A DNA stretch of 64,000 nucleotides from Dehalococcoidia bacterium. Its GTDB lineage: Bacteria; Chloroflexota; Dehalococcoidia; Lucifugimonadales; GCA-2712585. The position numbers and the translations under genes are program-made. The DNA lies in the NCBI GenBank assembly GCA_965208725.1, contig CBDBPI010000002.1, positions 1,706,878-1,770,877 on the forward strand. Direction: 5' to 3'. Below are positions 1,316 to 59,103 of the stretch, one piece after another. The notes under the pieces are model-generated. The model ran no database searches. It worked only from the letters and a program-made list of their open reading frames with translations, and was not told the origin of the DNA. Position 1 is the first letter of the stretch. Each line of letters starts with the position of its first letter.

Positions 1316-1405
1316 GGAGAGGTGGCCGAGTGGACGAAGGCGCCGCTCTCGAAAAGCGGTATACGTATGCGCGTATCGCGGGTTCGAATCCCGCCCTCTC
1401 CGCCA
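1316..1405 (+). tRNA. tRNA-Ser (anticodon CGA), CCA encoded
   Basis: GGAGAGG acceptor 5' arm pairs with CCTCTCC. Anticodon stem ccgct/agcgg with loop CT-CGA-AA. Long variable arm. T-arm gcggg-TTCGAAT-cccgc. Discriminator G followed by CCA. Confidence 0.9.
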
Positions 1406-8545: not shown

Positions 8546-9784
8546 GTGCAAGTCTACTCCGTATCCCAGATTACGCAGCATCTGAAGGGTCTGCTCGCCC
8601 AGGACCCCGTCCTTCAGGACGCGTGGGTCGCCGGCGAAGTCTCCAACCTGCGCGTCTCCCAAGCCGGACACGCCTATTTCACCCTGAAAGACCCCGACAG
8701 CCAGCTTAACTGCGTAATGTTCAGAAGGGGAGCCGGCATCGATCTCCTCGCCGACGGCGCCGCCGTCACCGCCCACGGCAACATGTCCCTCTATGAAGTA
8801 CGCGGCACCCTCGATTTCATCACCGACATAGTCGTCTCCGAAGGGGTCGGCCCCCTCGCCCTCGAATTCGAAAGGCTCAAGCAGTCCCTCGAGCAGGAGG
8901 GCCTATTCGACCCCTCCCGCAAGAGGCCTCTGCCCACATTCCCCAAGCACATCGGCCTCGTCACCTCCCCCGCCGGCGCCGTCCTCCACGACGTTATCCA
9001 GGTTCTCACACGCCGTTATACATTGGCCGAAGTCCTCCTCTCCCCCACCCCCGTCCAGGGCCCCGACGCCGCTCCCGCCATCGTCGACGCTCTGACCCGA
9101 CTCTTCCTCGATGGCCGCGCCGAAGTCATCATCGTTGCTCGCGGTGGCGGCTCCATGGAAGAGCTATGGCCCTTCAACGAGGAAGTCGTCGCCCGTGCCA
9201 TCTACGCCAGCCCCGTCCCCATAATCAGCGCTGTCGGCCACGAGACCGACTTCACCATCGCCGATTTCGTCGCCGACCTCCGCGCCCCCACCCCCTCCGC
9301 CGCCGCCGAGCTCGTCGCACCCCACAAGGCCGCCCTCCGGCAGGAAGTCGACGCAAACCTGCAGCGCCTCCTCGCGACCATCTCCGACCAAAACACCCAG
9401 AAACGCTACGCCCTATCTCGCCTAGTCGCCGACCTGGACTACCGCATCCCAGACTTCCCCACTCTGCGTCGTCGCGTCGACGACCTCTCCCATCGTTCCT
9501 CCACCGCCACTGCCGCATTCCTGACCTTGCGAAGCGGCGAGACCGCCTCCTTCATGGCCCGCCTCCAGACCCTCAATCCCGCCGCCACCCTCTCAAGAGG
9601 CTACGCCGTGGTCCACAAGCAGCCCGGCGACCAACCCATCTACTCAAAGAATGCCGTGCGCAGCGGCGACAGCCTAAACGTAACCGTCAGCGACGGCGCA
9701 TTCCCCGCTACCGTCCAGGGTCCTCAACCCACCCGGAGGAGGCGCAAGAAAACTGCCCCCAAGGCCACCGCCCGACTCTTCTAG
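8546..9784 (+). CDS. xseA: Exodeoxyribonuclease VII large subunit
   Basis: 412 aa with a GTG start abutting the efp stop. OB-fold N-terminus 'VSQITQHLKGLL...VWVAGEVSNL' and catalytic core 'IIVARGGGSMEELWPFNEE...PIISAVGHETDFTIADFVAD'. Confidence 0.9.
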   Translation: MQVYSVSQITQHLKGLLAQDPVLQDAWVAGEVSNLRVSQAGHAYFTLKDPDSQLNCVMFRRGAGIDLLADGAAVTAHGNMSLYEVRGTLDFITDIVVSEGVGPLALEFERLKQSLEQEGLFDPSRKRPLPTFPKHIGLVTSPAGAVLHDVIQVLTRRYTLAEVLLSPTPVQGPDAAPAIVDALTRLFLDGRAEVIIVARGGGSMEELWPFNEEVVARAIYASPVPIISAVGHETDFTIADFVADLRAPTPSAAAELVAPHKAALRQEVDANLQRLLATISDQNTQKRYALSRLVADLDYRIPDFPTLRRRVDDLSHRSSTATAAFLTLRSGETASFMARLQTLNPAATLSRGYAVVHKQPGDQPIYSKNAVRSGDSLNVTVSDGAFPATVQGPQPTRRRRKKTAPKATARLF

Positions 9785-9794
9785 CAGAATCACC

Positions 9795-10043
9795 ATGTCA
9801 AACGACGAACAGCAGTTGAACTTTGAAGAAGCCTTCCAGCGCCTGGAGGAGCTTGTGCACACCCTTGAGGAAGGCAAACTCTCCCTGGAAGACACCCGCC
9901 GCCTCTACGAGGAGGGCATGGGCCTCGCCAGGCAATGCAACCGGATGCTCAACGCCACCGAACTCCGCATAACCGAGCTGCGCGATTCCTTCATGGAGGA
10001 AATGTCCGAATCTGAATCAGAAAACGATGAACAGCTTCCTTAA
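9795..10043 (+). CDS. xseB: Exodeoxyribonuclease VII small subunit
   Basis: 82 aa. 'LNFEEAFQRLEELVHTLEEGKLSLEDTRRLYEEGMGLARQC' is the XseB helical hairpin. Lies immediately after xseA. Confidence 0.85.
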   Translation: MSNDEQQLNFEEAFQRLEELVHTLEEGKLSLEDTRRLYEEGMGLARQCNRMLNATELRITELRDSFMEEMSESESENDEQLP

Positions 10044-10692
10044 AGCCGACCTTCACGTTCACACCTGCTACTCCCACGACTCCACCGCCCCCCTCCAGTC
10101 CATCATCAACCGCTGCATCCAAACCGGCATCAACTGCCTGGCCATCACCGACCACAACACCGCGGAGGGCGCCCTGTTGCTCAAGGGTGATGCGCCAATC
10201 CACATCATCGTCGGCGAAGAGGTTAAGTCCTCAGAGGGAGACATCATCGGCCTCTTCCTCAAAGAGACCATCCCCCAGGACCTGACCCCGCAGCAGACAG
10301 TACGAGAAATCAAGTCCCAGGGTGGCCTCGTCATGGTCCCCCACCCCTTCGACCGGGTACGCCACTCCGCCCTTGGCCTTGAGGCCTTCCAATCTATTGC
10401 CCACGACGTCGACATAGTCGAGACCTTCAACGCCCGCAACTTCTTCAACGCCGACGACGCCCAAGCCGACGAAATCGCCCGCAGCCACCACATCGTCCGC
10501 GCCGCCGCCAGCGACGGCCACGCCTCCGTCGAACTCGGCCGCACCTACAACCTCATCCGCACCTTCATCGACACTCCCCAGGACTTCCTCCAGGGCCTCT
10601 CCCAGGCCCAACTCGTCACCAGGCGTACCCGTATGCTCCACCGCATGGCCCCGACAATAGCCAAGGCCCGCAAGTATTTCTCCCGCCGGTGA
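10027..10692 (+). CDS. PHP-domain metal-dependent phosphoesterase
   Basis: 221 aa. 'KADLHVHTCYSHDS', 'LAITDHN' and 'MVPHPFD' are PHP motifs. Overlaps the xseB end by 17 nt. Confidence 0.7.
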   Translation: MNSFLKADLHVHTCYSHDSTAPLQSIINRCIQTGINCLAITDHNTAEGALLLKGDAPIHIIVGEEVKSSEGDIIGLFLKETIPQDLTPQQTVREIKSQGGLVMVPHPFDRVRHSALGLEAFQSIAHDVDIVETFNARNFFNADDAQADEIARSHHIVRAAASDGHASVELGRTYNLIRTFIDTPQDFLQGLSQAQLVTRRTRMLHRMAPTIAKARKYFSRR

Positions 10693-10696
10693 ACCG

Positions 10697-11323
10697 ATGT
10701 CGGCCCTACTCAACCTCGGCATCCTCGCGTCTCACACCGGCACCACTCTCCAGGCCATCATCGACGCCTGCGAACAGGGCGACCTCAACGCCCGCTGCTG
10801 TGTGGTCATCAGCAACAACTCTAAGTCGGTAGCCCTCCAACGGGCTCGCAATCACCACATCCCCGCCCTCCACCTGAGCAGCCGCACCCACCCCGAATCC
10901 CAACCCCTCGACACCGCCATCGCCGACGCCCTCTCCCGCCACGACGTCGACCTTGTCGTTTTGGCCGGCTACATGAAACTCCTCGGCCCAATCACCCTGC
11001 AGCGTTTCCGTAACCGCATCGTCAACACCCACCCCGCCCTGCTCCCTGATTTCGGCGGACGAGGCATGTACGGCGACAACGTCCACCAAGCCGTCCTCGA
11101 CGCCCGACGCGAGGCCACAGGCGTCACCGTCCACCTCGTCGACGAAATCTACGACCACGGTCCAATCCTCGCCCAGACCGAAGTCCCCATCCACCCCAAC
11201 GACACCCTCGCTTCCCTACGAGACCGCGTCCAGACCGTCGAACGCCGCTTCTACGTCGACACCCTCCAGAAAATCGCCACCAACCAAATCCCCCTCCCTC
11301 CTTCTCCCCTCCGCTCATCCTGA
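10697..11323 (+). CDS. purN: Phosphoribosylglycinamide formyltransferase
   Basis: 208 aa. 'LGILASHTGTTLQAIIDA', 'LVVLAGYMKLL' and 'IVNTHPALLPDFGG' (the N-H-D formyltransferase triad region). The last ~10 codons and the stop codon lie inside a repeat module (CGCTCATCCTGA at 11312). Confidence 0.9.
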   Translation: MSALLNLGILASHTGTTLQAIIDACEQGDLNARCCVVISNNSKSVALQRARNHHIPALHLSSRTHPESQPLDTAIADALSRHDVDLVVLAGYMKLLGPITLQRFRNRIVNTHPALLPDFGGRGMYGDNVHQAVLDARREATGVTVHLVDEIYDHGPILAQTEVPIHPNDTLASLRDRVQTVERRFYVDTLQKIATNQIPLPPSPLRSS

Positions 11324-11747
11324 GCCTGTCGAAGGATCGAGCGTCCCTCTTCCATTAAACCTGTAGGGGCGGTTCGCGAACCGCCCTTCTTCTTCCCCCT
11401 CTCCCATCTTGCTAGAGGGCTGGGGTGAGGGCACTCCCTCTCTCCTCTTAAGCCTTCCCCCTTGACGGGGGAAGGCTTGGATGGGGGTGACTCCCCCGTT
11501 TGCCCTACCCCTGCTACCCAAATGACCTTCGTAGTGAGCGGCTCGCGAGCCGCCCGCCCTCGTCAACTGCGCCCAACCCCAAACGTGTCAAACCAGCCCC
11601 ATCTCTACACCAAACCCCTCAACCCACCACCAACTCTGCAACTTACCGCAACGCAGTTGCCTTGCCGTCATGCAATGACCCCCCCAAACCAAAAGACCCG
11701 CTCTTTCAAGCAGGTCTCTTGCAGACTCCTGGTATGTCGAAGGAACG
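11324..11747. repeat. Intergenic mosaic of short hairpin repeat modules
   Basis: Modules seen elsewhere in the window: CGCTCATCCTGAGCCTGTCGAAGGA (11312), GTAGGGGCGGTTCGCGAACCGCCC (~11363), CCCTCTCCCATCTTGCTAGAGGGCTGGGGTGAGGG (~11396), CTTCCCCCTTGACGGGGGAAG+GGATGGGGGTGA (~11455), GAGCGGCTCGCGAGCCGCCC (~11537), GCAACGCAGTTGC and GTCATGCAATGAC (~11650-11680). Confidence 0.8.
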
Positions 11748-30841: not shown

Positions 30842-31135
30842 CCCCCTCCCCTATTCCCCCTCTCCCATCTTGGGAGAGGGTTGGGGTGAGGGTATTCCCA
30901 CTTCACCCACGCCCAACCCCAAACTTACCTCAACGCAGTTGCCCCACCCCCACGGATGCGGGGCCCACTCCCTCTCCCCCTCAACCCACACGTCAGATGT
31001 AGGGGCGGGTTTGAAACCCGCCCTTTCCCCACGCCCCGTAGCGCAGCAAAGAAGAATCTCGCGATCCACCCTCACATACAATATGGAACGATTCCACCAC
31101 AATCCGCATACTATCCAATAGAGGCATCAACAAAA

Positions 31136-33052
31136 GTGGCTCACATCCTAAAACACGCCCTACCAAACAACCCCCTGCTGGCCCTATTGGTAGCTGCCAT
31201 CATCCTAACTCTCCTCATATCCTCCTGCACCACCGAAGATACGACTCAGCAAGGCTCCTCTTTCGCAACGTCCATAGCAACCCCCATCCCGACTCCACCA
31301 CCCACACCTAATCCGCGGATAGAACTGACAGACCGAGAAATACTAGTCACCCTCTACCACGCTACCGAAGGCCCAGACTGGAAAAATAACACCAATTGGC
31401 TCAGCGACAAACCCCTTGACGAGTGGCATGGCGTCACCACCGACAACATTGGGCGTTTAACTCGGTTGGAACTTAGTGACAACAATTTAAGTGGAAAGAT
31501 CCCGCCTGGGCTTGGAAACCTCTTACACCTGACTAGCTTAAGCCTCAGAAAAAACAACCTACATGGTGAGATTCCACCAGAACTGGGCAGCCTCTCAAAC
31601 CTCAAATTCCTATGGCTGGACTACAACCATTTGAGCGGAGAAATACCTCGAAAGTTGGGGGATCTCTCCAGTCTCGCGTTAATGCGACTTAGCAATAACC
31701 GCTTAAATGGTGGAATTCCGCCAGAAATCGGCAACCTCACCAACCTCTGGGATCTTCACCTTAGCAACAACCAATTAATTGGAGTGATTCCTCCTGCATA
31801 GACAAACCTTCCATACCTGAACGAACTCTTCCTTGACGGAAACCAATTGAGCGGATGCTTGCCGGAGAGACTCTGGATCGTAAGACAGAACGACTTGTCC
31901 CAGCTGGACTTCCCCTTCTGCAAATCCTATGAATCAACACAAAGTGCAACAGATAGGGAGGCTCTGACCGTCTTCTTTGAAATAACGGGCGGCTACAATT
32001 GGGCCAACAATACCAATTGGCTCAGCGACCTGCCCCTTAACGAATGGTACGGCGTTATCACATACCCCGACGGACGCGTCGCCAAGCTACATCTCGAATA
32101 CAACAACTTGACTGGACGAATACCCTCGGATTTGCAAGCTCTTTCCAGATTGGTAGTGCTAGATCTTCATGGGAACAAATTGAGCGGCAAGATACCTCGG
32201 GAACTTGGCGCCCTCTCAAACCTGGAATTCCTCACGTTGTATAGCAACCAGTTGAGTGGGGAAATTCCAGCAGAATTGGGCAGCCTCAGCAACCTGAGAA
32301 GACTGTGGCTCTGGTATAACCAGTTGAGCGGCGAAATTCCCCCCGAATTGAGTAGCCTCAACAACTTAGAGTACCTGGGACTAGACGATAACCAGTTGAA
32401 CGGCGAGATTCCCCCAGAACTTGGCAACCTCTCAAACCTTGCAAGACTGACACTCAAATCTAATCAATTATCCGGGGAACTCCCAGCGGAACTGGGTGAA
32501 CTATCTAACCTTAGAGTATTGGACTTGGCAGGCAACCAGCTAACCGGAGAGATTCCCCACCAACTAGCCAACCTCTCCAAGCTAAATGAGATGCATCTCG
32601 CCCATAACCATTTAACCGGACAGATTCCGTCCGAATTGGGCAGCCTCAACAACCTGGAGATTCTCTTCCTTTACGGCAATCAATTGACTGGCGAGATACC
32701 TCCGCAGTTGGGAAATCTCACTAATCTGGAACTGTTGAGACTCAGCCAAAACCAGCTCAACGGTGAAATGCCACCCCGGTTGGGCAACCTCTCCAAGTTA
32801 AATGAGATGCATCTCGACAATAACCATTTGACCGGGGAAATTCCGGCACAGTTGGGCAACCTTTCCAACCTGATAATACTACATCTATACGATAACCAAT
32901 TAACCGGCACAATCCCTCCGGAATTGGCAAATCTCTCCAGATTGCAGAGACTTAGACTAAGCGGCAACCCCCTCACAGGCTGCATCCCCGAAAGTCTGTG
33001 GCCCATCCCGTTACACGACCTCCCCTCTCTCAACCTCCCCCTCTGCCCCTAA
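31136..33052 (+). pseudogene. Leucine-rich-repeat lipoprotein (two tandem LRR modules) interrupted by an in-frame TAG at 31799..31801
   Basis: Track ORFs 30956..31801 and 31847..33052 are in the same frame, and translation is continuous across the stop: '...NQLIGVIPPA*TNLPYLNELFLDGNQLSGCLPERLW'. The probable GTG start at 31136 gives the signal peptide 'AHILKHALPNNPLLALLVAAIILTLLISSC' with a lipobox. The repeats are 24-residue 'LxxLxxLxLxxNxLSGEIPxELGx' units. GC is lower than in the neighbouring genes. Confidence 0.7.
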
Positions 33053-38328: not shown

Positions 38329-38925
38329 CTAGAGTGACTGAGATCGACCGATGGCAATTGCCCCAACCTCTGACCAGTCTGGGTATTTGACACGGAGCGC
38401 AGTCAAAGAAGGTGAATCGCCACCGATGCCAACTGGACAAGCCGCTAAGCCAAGTGCCGTCGCAACCAAGGACGCCGTAGCCAAGAACGCGCCTGCGTCA
38501 CGCAGTATGAGTGACATCCCACCAACATAACTGCCTAGGGTTCGTTTCAGTTCAGCAACGAGACATATGACCGCGGGCGGTGGTTGATCCGTTGCAAGAG
38601 CTGTTTGTGCCCGTACTGCCACCTCCAATGCAATGTTGCTACTTTCAAGGAGTACACTGAGGCGACAAAGGATTGGATCGAACCAGTATAGCCCTGGAAC
38701 TAAACCACGAACGTTAAGTGCCGCAATAACCAATTCAATTGGGTGCCGCGCACCCGCAGAAGGTGAAGGGCGGCTACTTGCTATCTGCCCATTTTCCATA
38801 AACCAGGCAAAACGACAGCGGGCCGCATGTGTCATTAGTGCAAGGAGATCAGACCTACTCGGCGAGTCAAACCTGCGAACTGATTGTCGCCTCTGAAGTA
38901 CGGTAGCAAAGCCCACGTCAGGCAT
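38329..38925 (-). CDS. SagB-type dehydrogenase / nitroreductase-fold flavoprotein
   Basis: 198 aa. 'RRQSVRRF', 'SRPSPSAGARHPIELV', 'GLYWFDP' and 'LILRDAGAFLATASLVATALGLAACPVG' match the SagB/ThcOx-type nitroreductase pattern. No strong SD. GC is about 55%. Confidence 0.7.
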   Translation of the reverse strand: MPDVGFATVLQRRQSVRRFDSPSRSDLLALMTHAARCRFAWFMENGQIASSRPSPSAGARHPIELVIAALNVRGLVPGLYWFDPILCRLSVLLESSNIALEVAVRAQTALATDQPPPAVICLVAELKRTLGSYVGGMSLILRDAGAFLATASLVATALGLAACPVGIGGDSPSLTALRVKYPDWSEVGAIAIGRSQSL

Positions 38926-39217
38926 TTTGCAAATACTACTTCGAGGTAATAACTTTCCAAAACTTTTGGTTTCGTTACTGGCTATCGGGCTAGTTCCGTG
39001 GGGTCTAACATTTGAAATCTCAAACTATGATGCCAATGTTGTGGCAGTGGGACAACCCAGTGGTTGTATCTCAGAATACTGCGAAATTTTTTCAACAAAA
39101 TCGCGAAAATTTGATACTACGTCGCCATCCGTAATCCAACGAGATCCACTGCGAGTTTCAATCAAACATTCATTCTCGCCGATCCAGACTGCATACCCGT
39201 TCACTGACAATGCCGCT

Positions 39218-39799
39218 CTAAATCTTCTCAAACGTATCCGCGCGTTTAGTGCAGCCTCTACATTGACCGCATGCAAGATTGGCAACGTGGCACGAGTGAG
39301 TCCAAGATAGAAGAGAAAGTGGTATTCCAGAGTCATTCACAAGATCAAGGGATGTCTTGTACAAACCTGGTGCTGTCACTCGTATTCCGCCTTCTTGCAT
39401 CATCATTAAAGTACTCAATGCCTCAATGAACCCGGGCGTACCGTCGGCATGTAGGCTGTCTGTCAGAACCGTCCCAACCAGAATTTCTTTAACCCCCAAC
39501 TTCAATGCGACGGGTGCTGCCAACGTCATCAACAGCTGATTGCGGTACGGCCACCACTCAGAAGTTGGAGCATGTGGCGCCGCTTCAATCCCCGCCAGAT
39601 CACCGCTTCCGATTGTCGAACAATCTATTCCTATAAATTCAAGAGGGATCCCAAGCCGCGTGGCAACGGCATTTGCAGCCCTCCACTCTCCTTCAGCAGG
39701 TAGTTGACCGTAGTCCACAAAAATTGCGAGTTGTGGGCGCTCAACAAACGCTATCGCAGAGGAGTCCACTCCACCTGACAAAAGAATCGCTTGCTTCAT
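39218..39799 (-). CDS. QueC-like PP-loop ATPase (7-cyano-7-deazaguanine synthase family)
   Basis: Track ORF 39218..39814. I prefer the ATG at 39799, which forms an ATGA overlap with the upstream stop. 'MKQAILLSGGVDSSAIAF' is the SGGxDS PP-loop, and the C-terminal 'SCHVANLACGQCRGCTKR' is the QueC zinc-cysteine cluster. GC is about 43-48%. Confidence 0.8.
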   Translation of the reverse strand: MKQAILLSGGVDSSAIAFVERPQLAIFVDYGQLPAEGEWRAANAVATRLGIPLEFIGIDCSTIGSGDLAGIEAAPHAPTSEWWPYRNQLLMTLAAPVALKLGVKEILVGTVLTDSLHADGTPGFIEALSTLMMMQEGGIRVTAPGLYKTSLDLVNDSGIPLSLLSWTHSCHVANLACGQCRGCTKRADTFEKI

Positions 39800-40986
39800 C
39801 TGAGTCCGGCCCACACTGCATTGTATGCTGCCTGAGCAAGGCTAGAATAAATTGGTATATCTGTGCCGATTAACATTGTAAAATCGGTGCTCTCGGGTCG
39901 TTCAGTAAGCCCAACGACAGGAATATTCTTAGCCTTAGCGTACCCGACTTCAAATAGTGTCCCCGGGTCCTCCCCATCTAAAAGGGCCAGAACTGCGCTG
40001 CATTCTTCCAAGCCTCGCAAGTCCGCTGGTGCCACCTTACTTGGTTCACCTTTTCCTACATCGTGAAGTGGTGAGAACACTTCCACTCCTAGATCTTTAA
40101 GGCAATCACGCACTTGGTCAACGAGCCATCTCTCACCGTAGCTAAAGAAGGGTCCAGCCAAATAGATCTTCACGTCTCTCCCCCACGCACATTCCACATC
40201 CGATTTCGGCAAGACTACATCGCCACGCTTTGTGACGACCTGTAAGGGCCCTCTCGAACACCAAGTTGCTGTACCTTTGGAAGCCTGCTGTGCTGAATAC
40301 AGTGGATCCTCTCCTCTTTCAGCCCAATACCATGCAAAAAGCGCACTGTAGACGTCACCCGAACCAATTGGCCACACTTCCACTGTTGGGTAAGGCTCGA
40401 TGAAGGAGGTTCCAGAATCATCAACGAGGAAGGCGCCAAGCGGTCCGCACTTTGCAATTACTATTTCAGCAGAGTACTTGCTCCTAACTTGTTCAGCAGC
40501 TTCGGCCACGGGCCGAGATGGAGATTCACAAAGCCCCAGAATCTCTCTATGGTTTCCAACAATGGCTAGTCTTTCAGCACTCCACTCAAAATGCCCCTCC
40601 AAATCTTCAAGCCCTGGGCTTTGAGGGTCAATCACAAGACTCACCGCCTTTACAACGGGCCTTGCTTCAACCATTCCGAAAGTCAATATCGAATCGGCCT
40701 CAACATTCAAGCATACTTTCTGGTTGTCGGATCCACTGTAATCGTGCATCGGCCTACTAACTGGGGTATCGTACATAAAGCAAATAGGCTGAGGTCTTTC
40801 TATGCATTCTAATGCTATACCCTTAGCTCTGACTATTGCAGCAGCTTCCTCATTCACTGCAGAGTGTAGTTTTGGAGGCGAGTGTACGTTGGAGAGTGCG
40901 TATGCTGCTCGTGCTCCCGATCCGAAGAGGTCACTGTATGAGGGATCACGACAGATCTCATGATACACTCCACCAACTACAATCAC
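39796..40986 (-). CDS. Fusion protein: PfkB-like (ribokinase-fold) kinase domain + nucleoside 2-deoxyribosyltransferase-like domain
   Basis: 396 aa. The N-terminal ~260 aa read 'MIVVGGVYHEI...GSGARAAYALS...VIAKCGPLGAFLV...WPIGSGDVYSALFAWYWAE' (PfkB GxGD anion-hole motif). The C-terminal ~125 aa read 'VKIYLAGPFFSYGERW...SPLHD...LDGEDPGTLFEVGYAKAKNIPVVG' (NDT-type Rossmann-like fold with the conserved Glu). GTG start in a GTGA overlap with the upstream gene. Confidence 0.7.
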   Translation of the reverse strand: MIVVGGVYHEICRDPSYSDLFGSGARAAYALSNVHSPPKLHSAVNEEAAAIVRAKGIALECIERPQPICFMYDTPVSRPMHDYSGSDNQKVCLNVEADSILTFGMVEARPVVKAVSLVIDPQSPGLEDLEGHFEWSAERLAIVGNHREILGLCESPSRPVAEAAEQVRSKYSAEIVIAKCGPLGAFLVDDSGTSFIEPYPTVEVWPIGSGDVYSALFAWYWAERGEDPLYSAQQASKGTATWCSRGPLQVVTKRGDVVLPKSDVECAWGRDVKIYLAGPFFSYGERWLVDQVRDCLKDLGVEVFSPLHDVGKGEPSKVAPADLRGLEECSAVLALLDGEDPGTLFEVGYAKAKNIPVVGLTERPESTDFTMLIGTDIPIYSSLAQAAYNAVWAGLR

Positions 40987-41324
40987 GCTGGTTTGACCTC
41001 AACCCGTACTATGCCGTCGTCAATTTCGCAAACCTCCGCACAATATTCTGTCCCCATTTGAAGACAATAAATCAAATCGTCTATTCGTTCCACAATAGCC
41101 CCAACTTGCTCATCGTCCAGTTGAACGACAACGCGTTGTACTGGCTCTCTTTCAAGACATACCTCCAACTGCAGTCCTATGCTGAGACGTTTCACCATTG
41201 CCTCAACGGGCGACGCAAGATTAGTCTGGAATTGAAGTTCATCACAGTTAGTGGTTTGGCTACCAATAGCAAACGGGCCACCAGTCCCGATCCATCTAGA
41301 CGGACCACCACCAGAACCAGACAT
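40983..41324 (-). CDS. Hypothetical 113-aa protein, first gene of the QueC-like operon
   Basis: ATG at 41324, 4 nt after GGGAGG. Gly-rich N-terminus 'MSGSGGGPSRWIGTGGP'. The beta-rich C-terminal part, 'LEVCLEREPVQRVVVQLDDEQVGAIVERIDDLIYCLQMGTEYCAEVCEIDDGIVRVEV', loosely resembles a HIRAN-like small barrel. No confident family assignment. Confidence 0.5.
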   Translation of the reverse strand: MSGSGGGPSRWIGTGGPFAIGSQTTNCDELQFQTNLASPVEAMVKRLSIGLQLEVCLEREPVQRVVVQLDDEQVGAIVERIDDLIYCLQMGTEYCAEVCEIDDGIVRVEVKPA

Positions 41325-43110: not shown

Positions 43111-43116
43111 CCCCCT

Positions 43117-43854
43117 CTACGTAGGGAACATGTCGTACAGCATTGGGAACGTGCGCCTAAAGTAGGCGTTCACAAAGCTGGAGAATGGCCTATCCGGTGA
43201 AATAAATTCGAGGGCTACACCAATCATTTCACTGTCGGCTCGATTCTTAAGTCTATTCTTCAGCATGGCCAGATGCCTAAGCCGACGATTGCGAACGTTT
43301 CGTGGATCATTCTCACCAAAATAACTGTCGTTCAGGTCTAGATCTCTAATCATTCTGAACGATGTTGACCACTCTTCACTATTAACCCGCCTTGCAGGTT
43401 GAATTTCACCCGTATCCACATCGAAGTCAAAATAATCATGAGCTGAACGTTGCCCCTGCTGAAAATTTGGATCCACGTATCGATCTACCGGAATATACCG
43501 AGCATATCCCACGTTTAACACCTGATTAACTTGATCAGCAGATTCAGGCCACTGGCCACCCTTTGCATCGTTGCATTGTTTGCAGCAGTAGACTAAGTTT
43601 TGCCAGTCGAAAGAGAGTGCAGGGAATTTCCTGCGAGGCCGAAAGTGATCGATCGTCTCTTCATCGCGAGAGTTTCCACTTCTTGTAGGAGGCTCGCACG
43701 ATTTTTCGCAATACCCACAAATCCCCTTGAAGTCATCAGAGAGTCCGCGGCGCATGCGGGCACGGTCGCGGAAGTCCAAGTCACTCCACTCTTTTCCATC
43801 ACGTCGCAGTTGGGCCAAGTGCATTGGCTCATTCGAGCGTTGTACCGAATGCAA
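43117..43854 (-). CDS. ptuB: HNH endonuclease, Septu PtuB-like
   Basis: 245 aa. 'CGYCEKSC...ETIDHFRPRRKFP...NLVYCCKQCNDAKG' is the HNH core. It begins 2 nt after the stop of the ATPase gene (TTG at 43854; an alternative ATG lies at 43824). Low GC. Confidence 0.65.
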   Translation of the reverse strand: MHSVQRSNEPMHLAQLRRDGKEWSDLDFRDRARMRRGLSDDFKGICGYCEKSCEPPTRSGNSRDEETIDHFRPRRKFPALSFDWQNLVYCCKQCNDAKGGQWPESADQVNQVLNVGYARYIPVDRYVDPNFQQGQRSAHDYFDFDVDTGEIQPARRVNSEEWSTSFRMIRDLDLNDSYFGENDPRNVRNRRLRHLAMLKNRLKNRADSEMIGVALEFISPDRPFSSFVNAYFRRTFPMLYDMFPT

Positions 43855-43856
43855 AC

Positions 43857-45169
43857 CTAGCCGCTATCCTGGTCGAGGCTCTGTCTTTCCTGGTACCTCT
43901 GCAAGGCTTCAGCAAACTGATGCTCGAACTCCTCTTGCTGTGCCTCCTCCGGTCCACCCGCAAGCAACTCCCGATTCACTCGTTGCCGAAGTCCCTGCAT
44001 CCGCCGTTGACGCTTCTCCTCCTCACGCCCATCGTCCAGCGGCTCCTGGTCACGTAGTCGTCGCAACTCCTTAGCCGCCTTTGCAGTCTCATTATCCGTG
44101 GGGTCTGTAACTCCCATCATCGTCCTCAGAATCTCATCCATTGTCCACCCAACAATATCCTCACTACTGGTTGTGGCCGTAACTCTACCCTCGTCCCTAC
44201 TCATCAGATGCACCTGCCCAGCCCTAAGCCCGGCCACAACGAATGGCGAGTGGGTTGTCGCAAAAATCTGCAGGTTGGGAAAATACTCCGGCGCCTGGAG
44301 TGTCGATAAAACCCGCCGTTGCCACTTTGGATGAAGATGATTCTCTATCTCATCAATCAGCAATATCGCAGGTTTCTTTTCCCAACCCTCTTTCCAACCG
44401 TAATGATTAGCCATCTTTAACGCGAGCGCGTAAATCCATAGAAGCGTCCCCTGTGTTCCTGAACTTAGCGCACCCATATAGACGGACTCTCCACCCTCTT
44501 CGTCGCTGGTCTCAAAGCCCATGTTTGCATGTGGAATCCTGCCAGGCTCAAGATACGTATGCGGACCTACACCGAGAATGACCTCTGTACATATTCTCCT
44601 GACAACAGCATGTACTAAGGCCAAAACCCTATCGATCTCGAACTGCACAGATGGCCTTTCTGCCATCAATTTCCTGTATGCGTCAACGGCTACAACTACA
44701 TCTGTGCCATTGAATATCCCCGGATCGGTTTCGAAGATAAAGTCAAGTGGAAATTTCCTAGCCTCTATAGACCTCTTCCACAGTGGCATTGCAAGCCCAA
44801 TTTCAGGGTTAATCGGCAAGTTTATTCTGGTAGCAGGAATGCTGAGAATCGGAACCCTGCTCATAGTCGTCTCGCTGCAAGCTTTGTGGACGTCACCAAG
44901 CCCGATCTCGCAATTGGAGCAGTCATCGCTCAGAGTTATCAGACATTCCGGCTCCTTATCATCGCCAAAGTCCTCAAACTTCATCTCCTCTAGTATCGGA
45001 TGCAAAGGGTTTTTCTCATTCCGGGAATAGGCATATTCCATAGCTCTCAGGATCGTCTCTTCCCCGAAGCGTTAGGACCAATCAACAAGTTGACCCGCTT
45101 GTCGCAATCCAGAGAGATTTCTGTGGAAATTGGAGGAATGTCTCTAATCAGAATTTTCTCAATATACAT
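43857..45169 (-). pseudogene. ptuA: ABC/AAA_15-type ATPase, Septu PtuA-like, frameshifted immediately after the Walker A lysine
   Basis: The ATG at 45169 opens 'MYIEKILIRDIPPISTEISLDCDKRVNLLIGPNASGK-RRS*'. The 394-aa track ORF (43857..45041) continues in another frame as '(T)ILRAMEYAYSRNE...'. One nucleotide appears to be missing at about 45056-45057; the expected reading is GPNASGK-S-TILRAMEY. Downstream, 'ILLIDEIENHLHP' is the Walker B/D-loop and 'IFATTHSPFV' the H-loop. Confidence 0.65.
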
Positions 45170-45207
45170 AGTGTTTCCTGTAAACCTACAATCTGGTACG
45201 CTCCCCC

Positions 45208-47919: not shown

Positions 47920-49212
47920 ATGAAGCTAGTAATGTGGATACTTGCGCTGGCGTTTCTTGTGGTGCTTGCTACAGTAATTTCCCTGGCGGTCGGTTTATGC
48001 ACGTCCATAAGAGAAGGTGAATTCTATTTTCTAGAGGGCGACCTCTTAGAGGAAGGTGATGTTTCGCCTGTAATTAACCACAACGGTCCATACTCCATAC
48101 CTCAATGGTCAGTTGACGGCACTCGTATAGTATCGAGCTTTCTTAACCTGCTGGTATATCCCAAGAAATTTGATTACAAATCAAGAAATGAAGTAACAAC
48201 CTACGTCGTGACATCTAACGGTAAGGGGATAGTATCCGTCCAAGACGCTGGAGAAGCTACCATATCTCCCGATGGGTACCGCATCGCCTTTGCCATTCAT
48301 CCTAGCAGTTTAATGGGCACGTCTGGCTTGGATGGACTCAACAGGGATGCTTTCCCTCAGGCGAGAGGACAGTATCCCGTCTGGTCTCCACAGGGTGACA
48401 AAATTGCCTTCGTGCGAATTGAACCCGACGGACGCCGCTTCCTTATCTTCCCACATAAGCCCTCCGGAGTCTTCACCATTGCGCCCGACGGCTCAGACCT
48501 GCGCAAGATTGGCACTATCAACATCCCGGGGGATTCGGAAGAGAGGCCCATTGAATACAACGGCAGCCTGACATGGTCACCGGATGGAGAGAGTCTGTAT
48601 TTCCTGAACTACCAACAGGACACCATCTACAGGGTAGACACTGACGGATCTGATCTGGAGGAGTGGTTCGTCCTTCCGCTAACGGGAAACGTAGCAAGGT
48701 ATCCAATCCGTAGTCCTCTGGCATGGTCGCCGGATGGACAGCGTATGGCTTTCGTGGCCCTGGCTAATGATCGCAGCCTGAAGCTCTACAACCTTGAGAA
48801 AGATGGCTCCGGCTTCCGAGAAGCGCTTGCCACGAGCGTCCATGAATCCGGCAGCGCCCGCACAATGACAATTAGCAGCTTGGAGTGGTCGCCTGACGGC
48901 AATCACATGCTGATAACTTTCAAGAACTTTCCTGGAGGTAGATCCATACCCGAATCTGTCAATAGAAAAGTGTTGGTAGTTGACATGAGGAACTCCCAAG
49001 TGCAACAGGTTGGATACGGTCCCGCGGCATCCTGGTCTCCGGACGGGACTAGGATAGTGGTTGCCAGGAATTATGGACGGAGTGAAGCAGAGGATATAGG
49101 AGATGACATTGCTTTGCTGACCATGTCCCCTGATGGGTCAGACGTCCAGATTCTGGCTAGGTACAGAGATGAGCGTCTGATACTTGAGGATAGGTTGAAT
49201 GAAGGCAACTAG
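47920..49212 (+). CDS. PD40/TolB-like beta-propeller repeat protein with an N-terminal TM anchor
   Basis: 430 aa. N-terminal 'MKLVMWILALAFLVVLATVISLAV', then at least 8 'SPDG' repeats (ISPDGYRIAF, WSPQGDKIAF, TWSPDGESLYF, AWSPDGQRMAF, EWSPDGNHMLI, SWSPDGTRIVV, and others). Noticeably lower GC than the neighbours. Confidence 0.7.
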   Translation: MKLVMWILALAFLVVLATVISLAVGLCTSIREGEFYFLEGDLLEEGDVSPVINHNGPYSIPQWSVDGTRIVSSFLNLLVYPKKFDYKSRNEVTTYVVTSNGKGIVSVQDAGEATISPDGYRIAFAIHPSSLMGTSGLDGLNRDAFPQARGQYPVWSPQGDKIAFVRIEPDGRRFLIFPHKPSGVFTIAPDGSDLRKIGTINIPGDSEERPIEYNGSLTWSPDGESLYFLNYQQDTIYRVDTDGSDLEEWFVLPLTGNVARYPIRSPLAWSPDGQRMAFVALANDRSLKLYNLEKDGSGFREALATSVHESGSARTMTISSLEWSPDGNHMLITFKNFPGGRSIPESVNRKVLVVDMRNSQVQQVGYGPAASWSPDGTRIVVARNYGRSEAEDIGDDIALLTMSPDGSDVQILARYRDERLILEDRLNEGN

Positions 49213-56100: not shown

Positions 56101-57231
56101 ATGATTGCGTGGCAGGACACCTTGCAAGGAAGAGCCATCACAGTCTGTCTGCTACTGATAGCCTCCCTATCTTCGTTTCTCCTGGTTTCTGCTTGCGCCA
56201 TCAGCGACCTCCCACCCACGGCCCAACCCCAGACAGACCTCTCTACCCCCACGCAAACACCCTCCCCCACTGCTCCACCACAGACAGTCACCGCTGTTCC
56301 CATGCCAACATTTCCGCCCCAAACACCGCCTCCCGCAACTGCCGTTAGAACTACGCCACTCCCAACCGCTGCACCATCGCCACCAACCTCACCCACGCCC
56401 ACACTCACCCCCTCCCCAACGCCTTCTCCTACGCCGGCCCCCACTCCTCCCTCTACGCCAACGCCTATACCTGCCCCGGCTAACACCCCCTCGCCCGCCA
56501 TTGCAGCCACGCCCGTTCCAACACCCACAAGCACCCCCACACCTTCTCCCACACCCCCTCCGACTCCCACTCCAATGCCGACTCGCTCCCCTCTTGGAAT
56601 TGTAATGGACCATCTCTCCAACACCATTCCTTGGTTCTCGAATCCACAGACCTTCACGGATGAACGCGCGTGGCAAACCCTCATCAAATTATCCATCATG
56701 GATATGGAGGTCGGTTTTGCTATCGCGGGCCTCCCGTGGATTGCCGACGGTCTAACCGGTGTTGAGGATTCTACTCTGGCCGGCCTTTACGTTGTTGCAA
56801 CTACCGATGCTGGTCTGGCAAGGCTAGCCTTGGATCTTCCTTGGGTAACAGGCGAAGCAGCATATACGGGGGACGAAACGTATGGAGAGAGAAGTGCGCT
56901 TTACTCTCTGAATAACATCGCAGAATACCATCCGCAGATTGCAAGCCACGTTGTATCCCTTCCCTGGCTTAACGATGACCTGACCGATCTTGAGGTGCGG
57001 GTCCTGGGAGATTTGTCCGACCTGGCCGCCCTCGAAATGGAAGCAACCTGGCTGGCAGCAAATCTACCCTGGTTTCTCGACAGATCCGTGACCGGGGACG
57101 ATTGGAGTGTCCTTCGCAATATCGTTGATGTGGCTAGAAGTGACGTCGAGAGAGCGCGCACCCTCTTGAGAGGGCACTTCGCAGGCTCCCCTCCTCCCGT
57201 ACCTCCACAAATCATTCCAAGCGCACCGTAG
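56101..57231 (+). CDS. Putative lipoprotein with a long Pro/Thr-rich linker
   Basis: 376 aa. Signal/lipobox 'ITVCLLLIASLSSFLLVSAC', about 130 aa of P/T/S-rich low complexity (PTPTxTPSPTP repeats), then a ~190-aa globular C-domain with repeated 'LPW(I/V/L/F)xD' motifs. No family recognised. Confidence 0.5.
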   Translation: MIAWQDTLQGRAITVCLLLIASLSSFLLVSACAISDLPPTAQPQTDLSTPTQTPSPTAPPQTVTAVPMPTFPPQTPPPATAVRTTPLPTAAPSPPTSPTPTLTPSPTPSPTPAPTPPSTPTPIPAPANTPSPAIAATPVPTPTSTPTPSPTPPPTPTPMPTRSPLGIVMDHLSNTIPWFSNPQTFTDERAWQTLIKLSIMDMEVGFAIAGLPWIADGLTGVEDSTLAGLYVVATTDAGLARLALDLPWVTGEAAYTGDETYGERSALYSLNNIAEYHPQIASHVVSLPWLNDDLTDLEVRVLGDLSDLAALEMEATWLAANLPWFLDRSVTGDDWSVLRNIVDVARSDVERARTLLRGHFAGSPPPVPPQIIPSAP

Positions 57232-57561: not shown

Positions 57562-57825
57562 ATGCCCGACCCCAACAAACACGCCATCGAAATCGAATAC
57601 TGCCACGACTGAGGCCACGCCCTCCGCGCCGCCTGGATGGCCGGCGACACCCTCAACCGCATCGGCGACCGCATCTCCTCCTTCACCCTCATCCCCGGCG
57701 GCCACGGCAAGTTCGACGTCCGCATTGACGGCCAGCTCGTCGCCGAGCATCGACACGAACCCAACGCCCACATCTTCCCCGACCTCCAGGACCTCCTCAA
57801 AGCCTTCGACCAACGCGCCAACTGA
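57562..57825 (+). CDS. SelW/Rdx-family redox protein with a C-x-x-U motif (selenocysteine candidate)
   Basis: ATG at 57562, after AAAGGAG. Translation: MPDPNKHAIEIEYCHD-TGA(57610..57612)-GHALRAAWMAGDTLNRIGDRISSFTLIPGGHGKFDVRIDGQLV... The same frame runs into track ORF 57637..57825. 'IEYCxxC/U...RAAWMA' is the Rdx-family signature. Confidence 0.75.
57627..57646 (+). promoter_or_regulatory. Candidate bacterial SECIS hairpin for the SelW-like UGA
   Basis: CGCCG-CC-UGGAU-GG-(C)-CGGCG: a 7-bp stem with a one-nt bulge and a G-containing 5-nt loop. It begins 17 nt after the U of the UGA at 57610, the same spacing as in the peroxiredoxin gene. Confidence 0.4.
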
Positions 57826-57849
57826 ACCCCCACAAAGAAAGGCCCAGCC

Positions 57850-59103
57850 ATGACCACCAACGACAACGTACAATCCCCCGTCGCCGTCCGCCCCCAAGAC
57901 TACCCCCGAGGCCAAATCCTCGCCTCCTCCGCCGACGAAGCCCGCAAGTCCACCCAGGGCCGACGCCTAGTCCGTGAGCGCGTCCTCTCCCTCGGCAAGG
58001 ACGCCATCTACAACATGACCGGCCTCGTCCGCGCCTTCCCCCTCGACCCCGAAGACCTCCCCACCCTCGAGAACCAGTTCACCTACTACACCCACTTCCT
58101 TGGTCGTGCCGAGGCCATGGCCGTCGAATTCGTCGGCGCCAACCCCCGCGACCACCAGGCCGTCATGTGCAACCGCGTCACCTCCGCCATGCTCGCCATC
58201 ATGCTCGGAACCCTCAATCGCGGCGACGCAATCATCTCCCTCGTCGGCAAAGGACGCTCCCACCCCTCCGTCCAGCAGGCCGTCGAGCTCGTCGGCGCCG
58301 ACTTCATCGAAGTCGAATCCATCGAAGCCCTCGAAGATGCACTCCCCCTCCGACCCTGGAAGATGCTCGTCGTCACCCCCCTGACTCCCTCCAAGCACCA
58401 CGTCCCCGCCGACCAGGTCGCCCACGCCATACGGCTGGCCAAGGAGCGCGACATGCTCGTGTTCCTCGACGACGCCCACATGATGTCCCGCACCATCTTC
58501 TTCGACGAACCCCCCACCTTCCAACTTGGCGACGTCGACCTCTCCGTCTGGTCCCTCGACAAGCACGTCCCCGGCCCCCGAGGCGCCGCCATCGTCGGAC
58601 GCAACGACCTCATGGAGCAGGTCTCTGCCCAGGCCTTCCAGTTCGGCCTCGAAGCCCAGTCCGGCCACTACGTCGCAATGGTCCGCGGCATGGAAGCCTT
58701 CGATCCCGAGCCCGTCAAGCGCGCCTCCGCCCTCGCCCGCACCCTCCACAAAAAATTCCAGGCCCGCTTCGGCCCCACCGTCTACCAGGCCGGCCCCGGC
58801 GTCGCCCTCACCGCCGAAGACTTCACCGAAGTGGTCTTCAATCACGCCGGGACCCGCGAAACAACCCTCGCCCCCTCCGAAGTCTCCGTCACCGCCAGTT
58901 TCCTCCTCCTCAAGAACTACGGCGTCATCACCATCCCCATCACCGGCTACCCCGGCGCTGCCCCCACCTTCCGACTTATGATGCACCCCGACGGCGAACG
59001 ATTCGGCGTCGACCCCCTCGTCCACGCCGTCCAGGACACCATCGAACGAACCGCCACCCTCCTCCAAAACCCCAACGCCGTCCGCACCCTCCTCCTCGGC
59101 TAA
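57850..59103 (+). CDS. PLP-dependent fold-type-I enzyme, SelA-like family
   Basis: 417 aa. 'VWSLDKHVPGPRGAAIVG' parallels the SelA 'SGDKLLGGPQAGIIVG' PLP-lysine segment, and 'LVFLDDAH' parallels the upstream Asp region. It lacks the SelA N-terminal tRNA-binding domain, so it is not called selA. Confidence 0.5.
   Translation: MTTNDNVQSPVAVRPQDYPRGQILASSADEARKSTQGRRLVRERVLSLGKDAIYNMTGLVRAFPLDPEDLPTLENQFTYYTHFLGRAEAMAVEFVGANPRDHQAVMCNRVTSAMLAIMLGTLNRGDAIISLVGKGRSHPSVQQAVELVGADFIEVESIEALEDALPLRPWKMLVVTPLTPSKHHVPADQVAHAIRLAKERDMLVFLDDAHMMSRTIFFDEPPTFQLGDVDLSVWSLDKHVPGPRGAAIVGRNDLMEQVSAQAFQFGLEAQSGHYVAMVRGMEAFDPEPVKRASALARTLHKKFQARFGPTVYQAGPGVALTAEDFTEVVFNHAGTRETTLAPSEVSVTASFLLLKNYGVITIPITGYPGAAPTFRLMMHPDGERFGVDPLVHAVQDTIERTATLLQNPNAVRTLLLG

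Follow-up and report, generated by a model that had tools for sequence, protein, structure and literature searches.

What is to be made of a defence operon in which the reading frame of the ATPase gene breaks off directly after the Walker A lysine? The question is raised by a Septu-like ptuA-ptuB pair, an ABC-type ATPase gene followed by an HNH nuclease gene, in a genome of Dehalococcoidia (Chloroflexota), of which a 64-kb stretch was analyzed (the window, to which all positions refer unless another sequence is named). Three open reading frames (ORFs) on the minus strand, of 40 codons, 394 amino acids (aa) and 245 aa, make up this one operon, and the first two of them are parts of a single ptuA gene separated by a frameshift. 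One base is missing from the Walker A serine codon, and we favor, with some reserve, the reading that its loss is a very recent inactivating mutation in an otherwise intact Septu operon.

The 5' fragment of ptuA (45047-45169, minus strand; 40 codons and a stop) encodes MYIEKILIRDIPPISTEISLDCDKRVNLLIGPNASGKRRS, with ...LLIGPNASGKRRS as its C-terminal part. It covers beta1-beta2 and the Walker A motif as far as the lysine (GPNASGK), after which the out-of-frame residues RRS lead into the stop codon. This fragment matches the P-loop models SMC_N, AAA_23 and AAA_29 of Pfam. The remainder of ptuA lies in the downstream frame (43857-45056, minus strand) and is formally represented by an ORF at 43857-45041, which begins at an internal methionine (Met44), encodes 394 aa and lacks a P-loop. 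It possesses the ABC signature LSSGTQ, the Walker B motif LLIDEIE, the H-loop THSP and the conserved C-terminal helical extension. The same 394-aa ORF is the database entry P0001, on a 1.82-Mb NCBI/ENA contig, and the next relative after it, P0002, is an intact protein of 436 aa with 75% identity, to which the 5' fragment is identical in 34 of 37 residues. The nuclease gene ptuB (43117-43854, minus strand) starts with TTG 2 nucleotides (nt) after the ptuA stop and appears intact; its 245-aa product contains DHFRPRRKF...CCKQCNDAKG, two CxxC pairs (C46, C49, C91, C94), the catalytic residues DH70, N86 and N95, and, C-terminally, a variable domain. An identical layout, with the ptuA stop followed after 2 nt by an HNH gene (245-256 aa), is seen in three independent homologue loci (L082, L083 and L084). 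The coordinates, the gene order, the 2-nt gap and the HNH motif are all as given in a preliminary description of the region, which had proposed a Septu pair with a 1-nt frameshift.

A single-base lesion in the Walker A motif

As sequenced, the codons at 45070-45047 read GCT TCG GGG AAG AGA CGA TCC TGA, and the ORF stops three codons after GPNASGK. The -1 frame from 45056 reads ACG ATC CTG AGA GCT ATG (T-I-L-R-A-M) and passes into the long ORF. The two frames meet at 45056-45057 (minus strand), where a base is absent between G45057 and A45056 (AAG AG^ ACG), at position 3 of the Walker A serine codon. Inserting one base at this point joins the P-loop ORF to the long ORF, as the preliminary description had anticipated, in a continuous 437-aa PtuA with GPNASGKST (...GPNASGKSTILRAMEYAYSRN...); a complete Walker A motif (GxxxxGK[ST]) in a single ORF is obtained only with this addition. 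Between the shift and the ATG with which the long ORF begins lie T39 and R42, both of them invariant across 12 aligned homologues. As these family-invariant residues are read in the downstream frame, the continuity of the two pieces is no matter of chance, and they formed a single gene until very recently.

In the syntenic contig L001, pairwise DNA alignment places AAGAGCACT where the window has AAGAG-ACG, that is, TCG GGC AAG AGC ACT ATC against TCG GGG AAG AG- ACG ATC. When the 2.1-kb cassette is compared with that of L001, the gap in the serine codon is the only ptuA indel at which the window is short of a base in a conserved codon. A protein search returned 2,608 homologues passing the E-value cut, and the best-scoring of these are 408-561 aa long with the P-loop within one ORF. 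As judged from L001 and the homologue set, the lesion is the loss of 1 nt, namely the third base in the serine codon following the Walker A lysine, which agrees with the deletion postulated earlier. With G on one side of it and A on the other, the deleted base is outside any homopolymer, a point that had also been correctly remarked upon.

The repaired PtuA and its partner point to Septu by several criteria. In PADLOC the best match of the repaired PtuA is PtuA (3.4e-38), and the top four matches are all PtuA models, with the retron I-A ATPase and AriA models lower; Pfam gives AAA_21 (1e-25) and AAA_15 (1.1e-21), along with SMC_N/AAA_23 at the P-loop end. Its best sequence match in the PDB is the E. 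coli Septu PtuA (8ee4, 3.4e-15, over residues 232-391), with retron I-A PtuA chains next. A fold search was conducted with an AlphaFold2 model of the intact 75%-identical homologue P0002, used in place of the window PtuA (predicted local distance difference test score 75.9), and the top 50 Foldseek matches in the PDB were PtuA without exception, E. coli Septu leading. The HNH protein matches HNH_I-A (1.2e-24) and PtuB (5.7e-24) in PADLOC and HNH in Pfam (3.8e-07), and passes TIGR02646 ('retron system putative HNH endonuclease') with 54.4 bits against a cutoff of 52.15; profiles, as well as PtuB/TIGR02646 chains from the PDB, align to it from residue 1. The PtuA/PtuB identity suggested in the preliminary description is thus upheld by the PADLOC matches of the repaired ORF, by TIGR02646, and by the PDB sequence and fold searches.

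Genuine mutation or assembly error

Apart from the missing base, ptuA and ptuB show no damage. Comparison of the window with L001 gives ratios of nonsynonymous to synonymous divergence (dN/dS) of 0.146 (ptuA) and 0.246 (ptuB), as against 0.095 and 0.081 for the flanking genes, which indicates that the signature of purifying selection persists across the rest of ptuA and ptuB. Every invariant column of the PtuA family is kept, T39 and R42 included, and the cassette contains no second stop codon or further indel. As neither gene is decayed elsewhere, the lesion is either very recent or an artefact of assembly.

The latter explanation, in which the organism has an intact 437-aa ptuA and a fully functional Septu, and the base was lost from the consensus of a long-read metagenome assembly, is a serious possibility, even if we consider it the lesser one. 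Several observations weigh in its favor and against a real mutation. A one-base assembly error is fully compatible with the data, and an artefact predicts the very same total lack of secondary decay in ptuA and ptuB. The related contigs bear metaMDBG-style names (ctgNNNl, some with a coverage tag), and L001, which represents the same type of data, shows small indels, including a frameshift of its own in ptuA (+1 A at L001:5523). The 394-aa call P0001 stems from the same assembly and is not independent of the window. On the other side, the missing base does not lie in a homopolymer, whereas several of the deletions in L001 fall in G-runs, and the 1.82-Mb length of the contig suggests good coverage. 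There is also no other frame break in the window: in the interval from 34.6 to 55 kb, eight core genes are each full-length and in a single frame relative to their orthologues, and a frame scan of the entire 64 kb based on GC content at third codon positions (GC3) found none, as one of the two candidates that it flagged proved to be two separate genes and the other a TGA for selenocysteine. No match was obtained when JGI metagenomes were scanned for the junction in either form, with the additional base or lacking it (AACGCTTCGGGGAAGAGN{0,1}ACG...), or in a protein-guided scan, and exact-sequence matching of the window PtuB, of P0001 and of P0002 likewise yielded no record. The preliminary description had left a choice between an inactivated, a mis-assembled and a frameshift-dependent gene; of these the third is disfavored for the reasons given below, and the evidence does not separate the first two.

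We also considered whether the broken ptuA of L001 might point to decay of the gene throughout the lineage. The aminotransferase gene of this contig (L001:2680-4131) contains six small deletions of 1-2 nt, three of them in G-runs (e.g. GGGGG to GGGG), and both gfo and tpp are undamaged there. These deletions are probably consensus errors resulting from low coverage, a true pseudogene being less likely. As L001 is noisy, with many other small deletions, its ptuA frameshift lends no support to lineage-wide decay, and this explanation was rejected.

Predicted consequences for the Septu system

In the Septu system EcB88, immunity is lost when Walker A (K43), Walker B (D316) or the HNH motif (H75, N91) is mutated, and the system cleaves tRNA-Tyr at its variable loop during infection (PMC13096335). 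In two other reports, the stand-alone E. coli PtuAB is a 6:2 complex in which PtuB is held by PtuA's C-terminal extension, and its DNA nicking is lowered by ATP (PMC12819146, PMC12640716). In the retron Ec78, PtuB alone is non-toxic (PMC12819146). According to the literature, in an intact Septu system PtuA, an ABC/SMC-like ATPase, oligomerises and binds the HNH nuclease PtuB via its C-terminal extension, with the ATP-bound form restraining the nuclease. Phage infection then frees the nuclease, and the resulting DNA nicking or cleavage of the tRNA-Tyr variable loop halts phage replication in an abortive-infection-like manner.

If the deletion is a genuine inactivating mutation, translation from the authentic start would terminate after 40 residues, and at most a P-loop-less fragment of 394 aa could be made from the internal ATG (45041), which has no evident ribosome-binding site. 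A PtuA deprived of residues 1-43 could not bind nucleotide. The loss of immunity in Septu mutants with a defective Walker A leads us to predict that the sequenced locus is an inactive Septu whose nuclease gene is intact but unpartnered. It is conceivable, though in our view improbable, that the deletion is real but tolerated, with the Met44-started 394-aa PtuA still acting as a scaffold for PtuB through the C-terminal extension. As ATP is a reported inhibitor of stand-alone PtuAB, such a P-loop-less complex could be an ATP-insensitive variant, giving rise to a differently regulated or dominant-negative Septu. In that event, the 394-aa variant would persist at a hotspot where Septu alleles, notably the PtuB C-terminal domain, are continually swapped.

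Programmed recoding, whereby full-length PtuA would be produced via -1 ribosomal frameshifting or transcriptional slippage as a means of regulated low expression of a toxic ATPase, is very unlikely; in its favor are solely the meeting of the two frames no more than 10 nt from the stop codon and the intactness of the remainder of ptuA. A slippery heptamer of the form X XXY YYZ is lacking from the stretch between TCG and the TGA stop, as is any run of A/T, and the 116 nt downstream of the shift are no more prone to folding than shuffled sequence is (z = +0.48). Slippage by -1 at AAG or AGA would yield GKET or GKRT, without the Mg-coordinating Ser/Thr directly following the lysine, whereas the aligned homologues carry GKST or GKTT. 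Nor is the shift found in the closest relatives L001 and P0002 or in any other aligned homologue.

Relationship to retron-associated and other ATPase-nuclease systems

The family assignment itself calls for some care, as ABC ATPases cross-match widely. The locus might in principle represent another ATPase-nuclease system, such as the effectors of type I-A retrons (type II Septu), PARIS, Gabija/OLD or some other pair of an AAA_15 ATPase and a nuclease. Consistent with this, the ATPase_I-A model of the retrons matches the repaired PtuA in PADLOC (2.2e-32), HNH_I-A is nominally the best match on the PtuB side, and AriA models match the ATPase at 2.1e-27. Two further results sit uneasily with a typical Septu: the NCBIfam Ec78 equivalogs are far under their cutoffs (105 against 500 for PtuA NF041760, 83 against 150 for PtuB NF041761), and the PADLOC PtuA matches span mainly the C-terminal half plus the P-loop.

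Nevertheless, four PtuA models rank above the retron I-A ATPase model and thirteen above AriA, and the nearest structure is that of the stand-alone E. coli Septu. The cassette is just 2.1 kb long and comprises two genes only, flanked by conserved core metabolic genes; no reverse transcriptase ORF is present in or next to it, and Rfam detects no RNA family in the cassette region. With no third gene, no Rfam RNA and core metabolic flanks, we identify the locus as a stand-alone (type I) Septu ptuA-ptuB rather than a retron I-A. A retron type I-A of the Ec78/Ec83 kind would call for an adjacent reverse transcriptase or non-coding RNA, and the Ec78 equivalog cutoffs are not reached. PARIS (AriA/AriB) is disfavored by the weaker AriA score as well as by the partner, which is a TIGR02646-type HNH protein rather than a DUF4435/TOPRIM AriB. 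No helicase partner is present either. The retron, PARIS and Gabija assignments are rejected in view of partner-gene content and model ranking, and we consider it highly doubtful that any other system is involved; the possibility of a retron-associated or other family, raised in the preliminary description itself, did not materialize. The Ec78 equivalog scores point instead to a divergent, non-retron Septu subfamily, with a predicted anti-phage role, and the window Septu adds a new and divergent member to a defence family that is already well known.

Stand-alone E. coli Septu PtuAB was reportedly the subject of a structural study by Li et al. in 2024. This system (PDB 8EE4/8EE7/8EEA/8SUX) has the same ptuA-to-ptuB order and is likewise without retron components. 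Its PtuA is 465 aa long, against 437 aa for the repaired window protein, with about 17% identity in the structural alignment and a central insert (about aa 50-230) that is not alignable by sequence. The window PtuB differs from its E. coli counterpart in having a second CxxC pair and another C-terminal domain, and the window ptuA is frameshifted and belongs to a dehalococcoidian host, whereas the E. coli system is from a proteobacterium. K43, D316 and H75/N91 of EcB88, also a stand-alone PtuAB, correspond to K37, D273/E274, H70 and N86/N95 of the window proteins; the tRNA-Tyr variable-loop target and the phage range are established for the E. coli system only. The PtuA and PtuB of the I-A retrons (Ec78/Eco7, Ec83/Eco4) comprise a homologous ATPase and a TIGR02646-type HNH protein, and their PtuB shares the 'xHFRPRxKFPAL' motif with that of the window, but the retron PtuA chains are longer (542-552 aa) and the window lacks the adjacent reverse transcriptase and non-coding RNA.

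A defence hotspot between gfo and tpp

The Septu genes are the whole cargo (43111-45207) of a site at which two convergent core genes face each other with their 3' ends, as originally described. From the cassette it is 6 nt to the stop (43110) of a plus-strand gene for a thiamine pyrophosphate (TPP) enzyme (tpp), and 38 nt to the stop (45208) of a minus-strand GFO/IDH/MocA gene (gfo). It is indeed lower in GC than its flanks, with about 50% (GC3 0.49-0.55) against 64% (GC3 0.83-0.85), but the figure of about 43% given earlier for a sampled line is not its average, as only some 300-nt windows reach 44-45%. The 38-nt spacer after the gfo stop contains a Shine-Dalgarno-like AGGAAA (45174-45179, minus strand), 5-10 nt 5' of the ptuA ATG, and this region (AGGAAACACTATG) is kept in the DNA alignment with L001. 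A promoter and terminator scan made no minus-strand prediction in the spacer and found nothing above the expectation from shuffled sequence, for which reason ptuAB is probably transcribed by readthrough from the amt-gfo operon.

The convergent gfo-tpp arrangement was recovered in seven related sequences, the window included. Four of them have Septu at this site, namely the window, L001, L005 (11169-13291) and L082 (6001-8129), the copies in the latter two being intact. In L002 the site (9357-11182) is occupied by HEC-01, a PADLOC candidate (HEC-01A 2.3e-157, HEC-01B 2.3e-64). Like Septu, HEC-01 is a two-gene system with an ABC ATPase in first position, but its second gene, HEC-01B, does not encode an HNH protein, and it shows no similarity to the window cassette outside the P-loop. 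The site is empty in L003 (11021-11405) and L004 (11024-11604), with GC-rich spacers of 386 and 582 bp. Each of these spacers holds the GC-rich repeat GCTGCGCTCRGRRTGRCAKGTGG twice, in hairpin-like units of about 50 nt (L003:11239-11261 and 11354-11376; L004:11410-11432 and 11525-11547). The repeat, which resembles repetitive extragenic palindromes or miniature inverted-repeat transposable elements, is also found at 1795-1817 of the window (minus strand).

Among the Septu carriers, the flanking proteins are 85-97% identical (95-97% between L001 and the window), against 53-80% for PtuA and 54-66% for PtuB. Synonymous divergence (dS) between the window and L001 is likewise 3-4 times higher in the cassette (0.84-1.03) than in the flanks (0.20-0.34). 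The divergent Septu alleles and the high dS of the cassette at one and the same site argue for a long-lived hotspot, and the cassette is best interpreted as an old, recombining polymorphism at a fixed position rather than a fresh insertion. Within PtuB the divergence is uneven: the window and L001 share 91% identity over the N-terminal 100 residues, as opposed to 48% in the C-terminal domain (window 43117-43560 against L001:6800-7244), parts of which look closer to L005 in the window. This mosaic suggests domain-level recombination or diversifying selection in that part of PtuB which contacts the PtuA C-terminus.

This Dehalococcoidia clade uses a single gap between convergent metabolic genes as a defence hotspot, a finding of modest biological interest. 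Both loss (the empty sites) and replacement (by HEC-01) occur there, and an inactivating frameshift fits such turnover. The fast evolution of the cargo and the mosaic PtuB are also in line with rapid turnover of immune genes, loss included, of which the ptuA frameshift may be an instance. The hotspot and the mosaic PtuB are relevant to comparative study, though unsurprising, and no new question regarding the Septu mechanism is raised by them. A practical corollary concerns the deposited 394-aa AAA call (P0001), on account of which finders demanding an intact PtuA may miss or mis-score the Septu locus.

As to the habitat of the clade, the gfo protein was used to scan species-representative genomes, and this places the window among metagenome-assembled genomes (MAGs) of Dehalococcoidia, with MAGs of Poribacteria and others of sponge type among the more distant matches. 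These associated matches suggest that the genomes of the clade are sponge-associated. Upstream in L001, GmrSD is split into N- and C-terminal ORFs.

Other features of the window

One of the two candidates of the GC3 scan led to a small gene of the Rdx/SelW family (57562-57825, plus strand) with an in-frame TGA (57610-57612) at the CxxU position (EYCHD-TGA-G). With cysteine in place of the TGA it matches Pfam Rdx (1.6e-13), and it is likely to be a selenoprotein gene that is prone to truncation by ORF callers. It is followed by a UPF0425-like gene for a pyridoxal phosphate-dependent protein (57847-59100).

Several further islands of low GC3 or low GC are interspersed among the genes of the window. 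At 30956-33052 (plus strand), an island of about 50% GC encodes two eukaryote-like leucine-rich-repeat proteins (281 and 401 aa) between high-GC core genes. A second island, of four genes (38329-41324, minus strand; GC3 0.40-0.47), encodes a nitroreductase-like protein, a QueC-like protein (PADLOC QueC 2e-17), a 396-aa fusion of a PfkB kinase and a nucleoside 2-deoxyribosyltransferase, and a 113-aa ORF without a match. It may constitute a module for nucleoside or 7-deazaguanine-type modification or for defence, and in L003 and L005 a much shorter distance separates the core genes around it. Two low-GC islands consist of single plus-strand genes, one for a PD40/WD40 beta-propeller protein of 430 aa (47920-49212), the other a 376-aa ORF with no match in Pfam or PADLOC (56101-57231).

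Over the whole window (1-64000) the GC skew of the plus strand is uniformly and strongly negative, at about -0.15 to -0.4 per kb, regardless of gene orientation, and the AT skew tracks gene orientation. The GC skew is weaker in some of the low-GC islands (e.g. -0.02 at 48-49 kb), consistent with a more recent foreign origin. The sole Rfam match at the gathering threshold in the window is a tRNA gene at 1316-1402 (plus strand).

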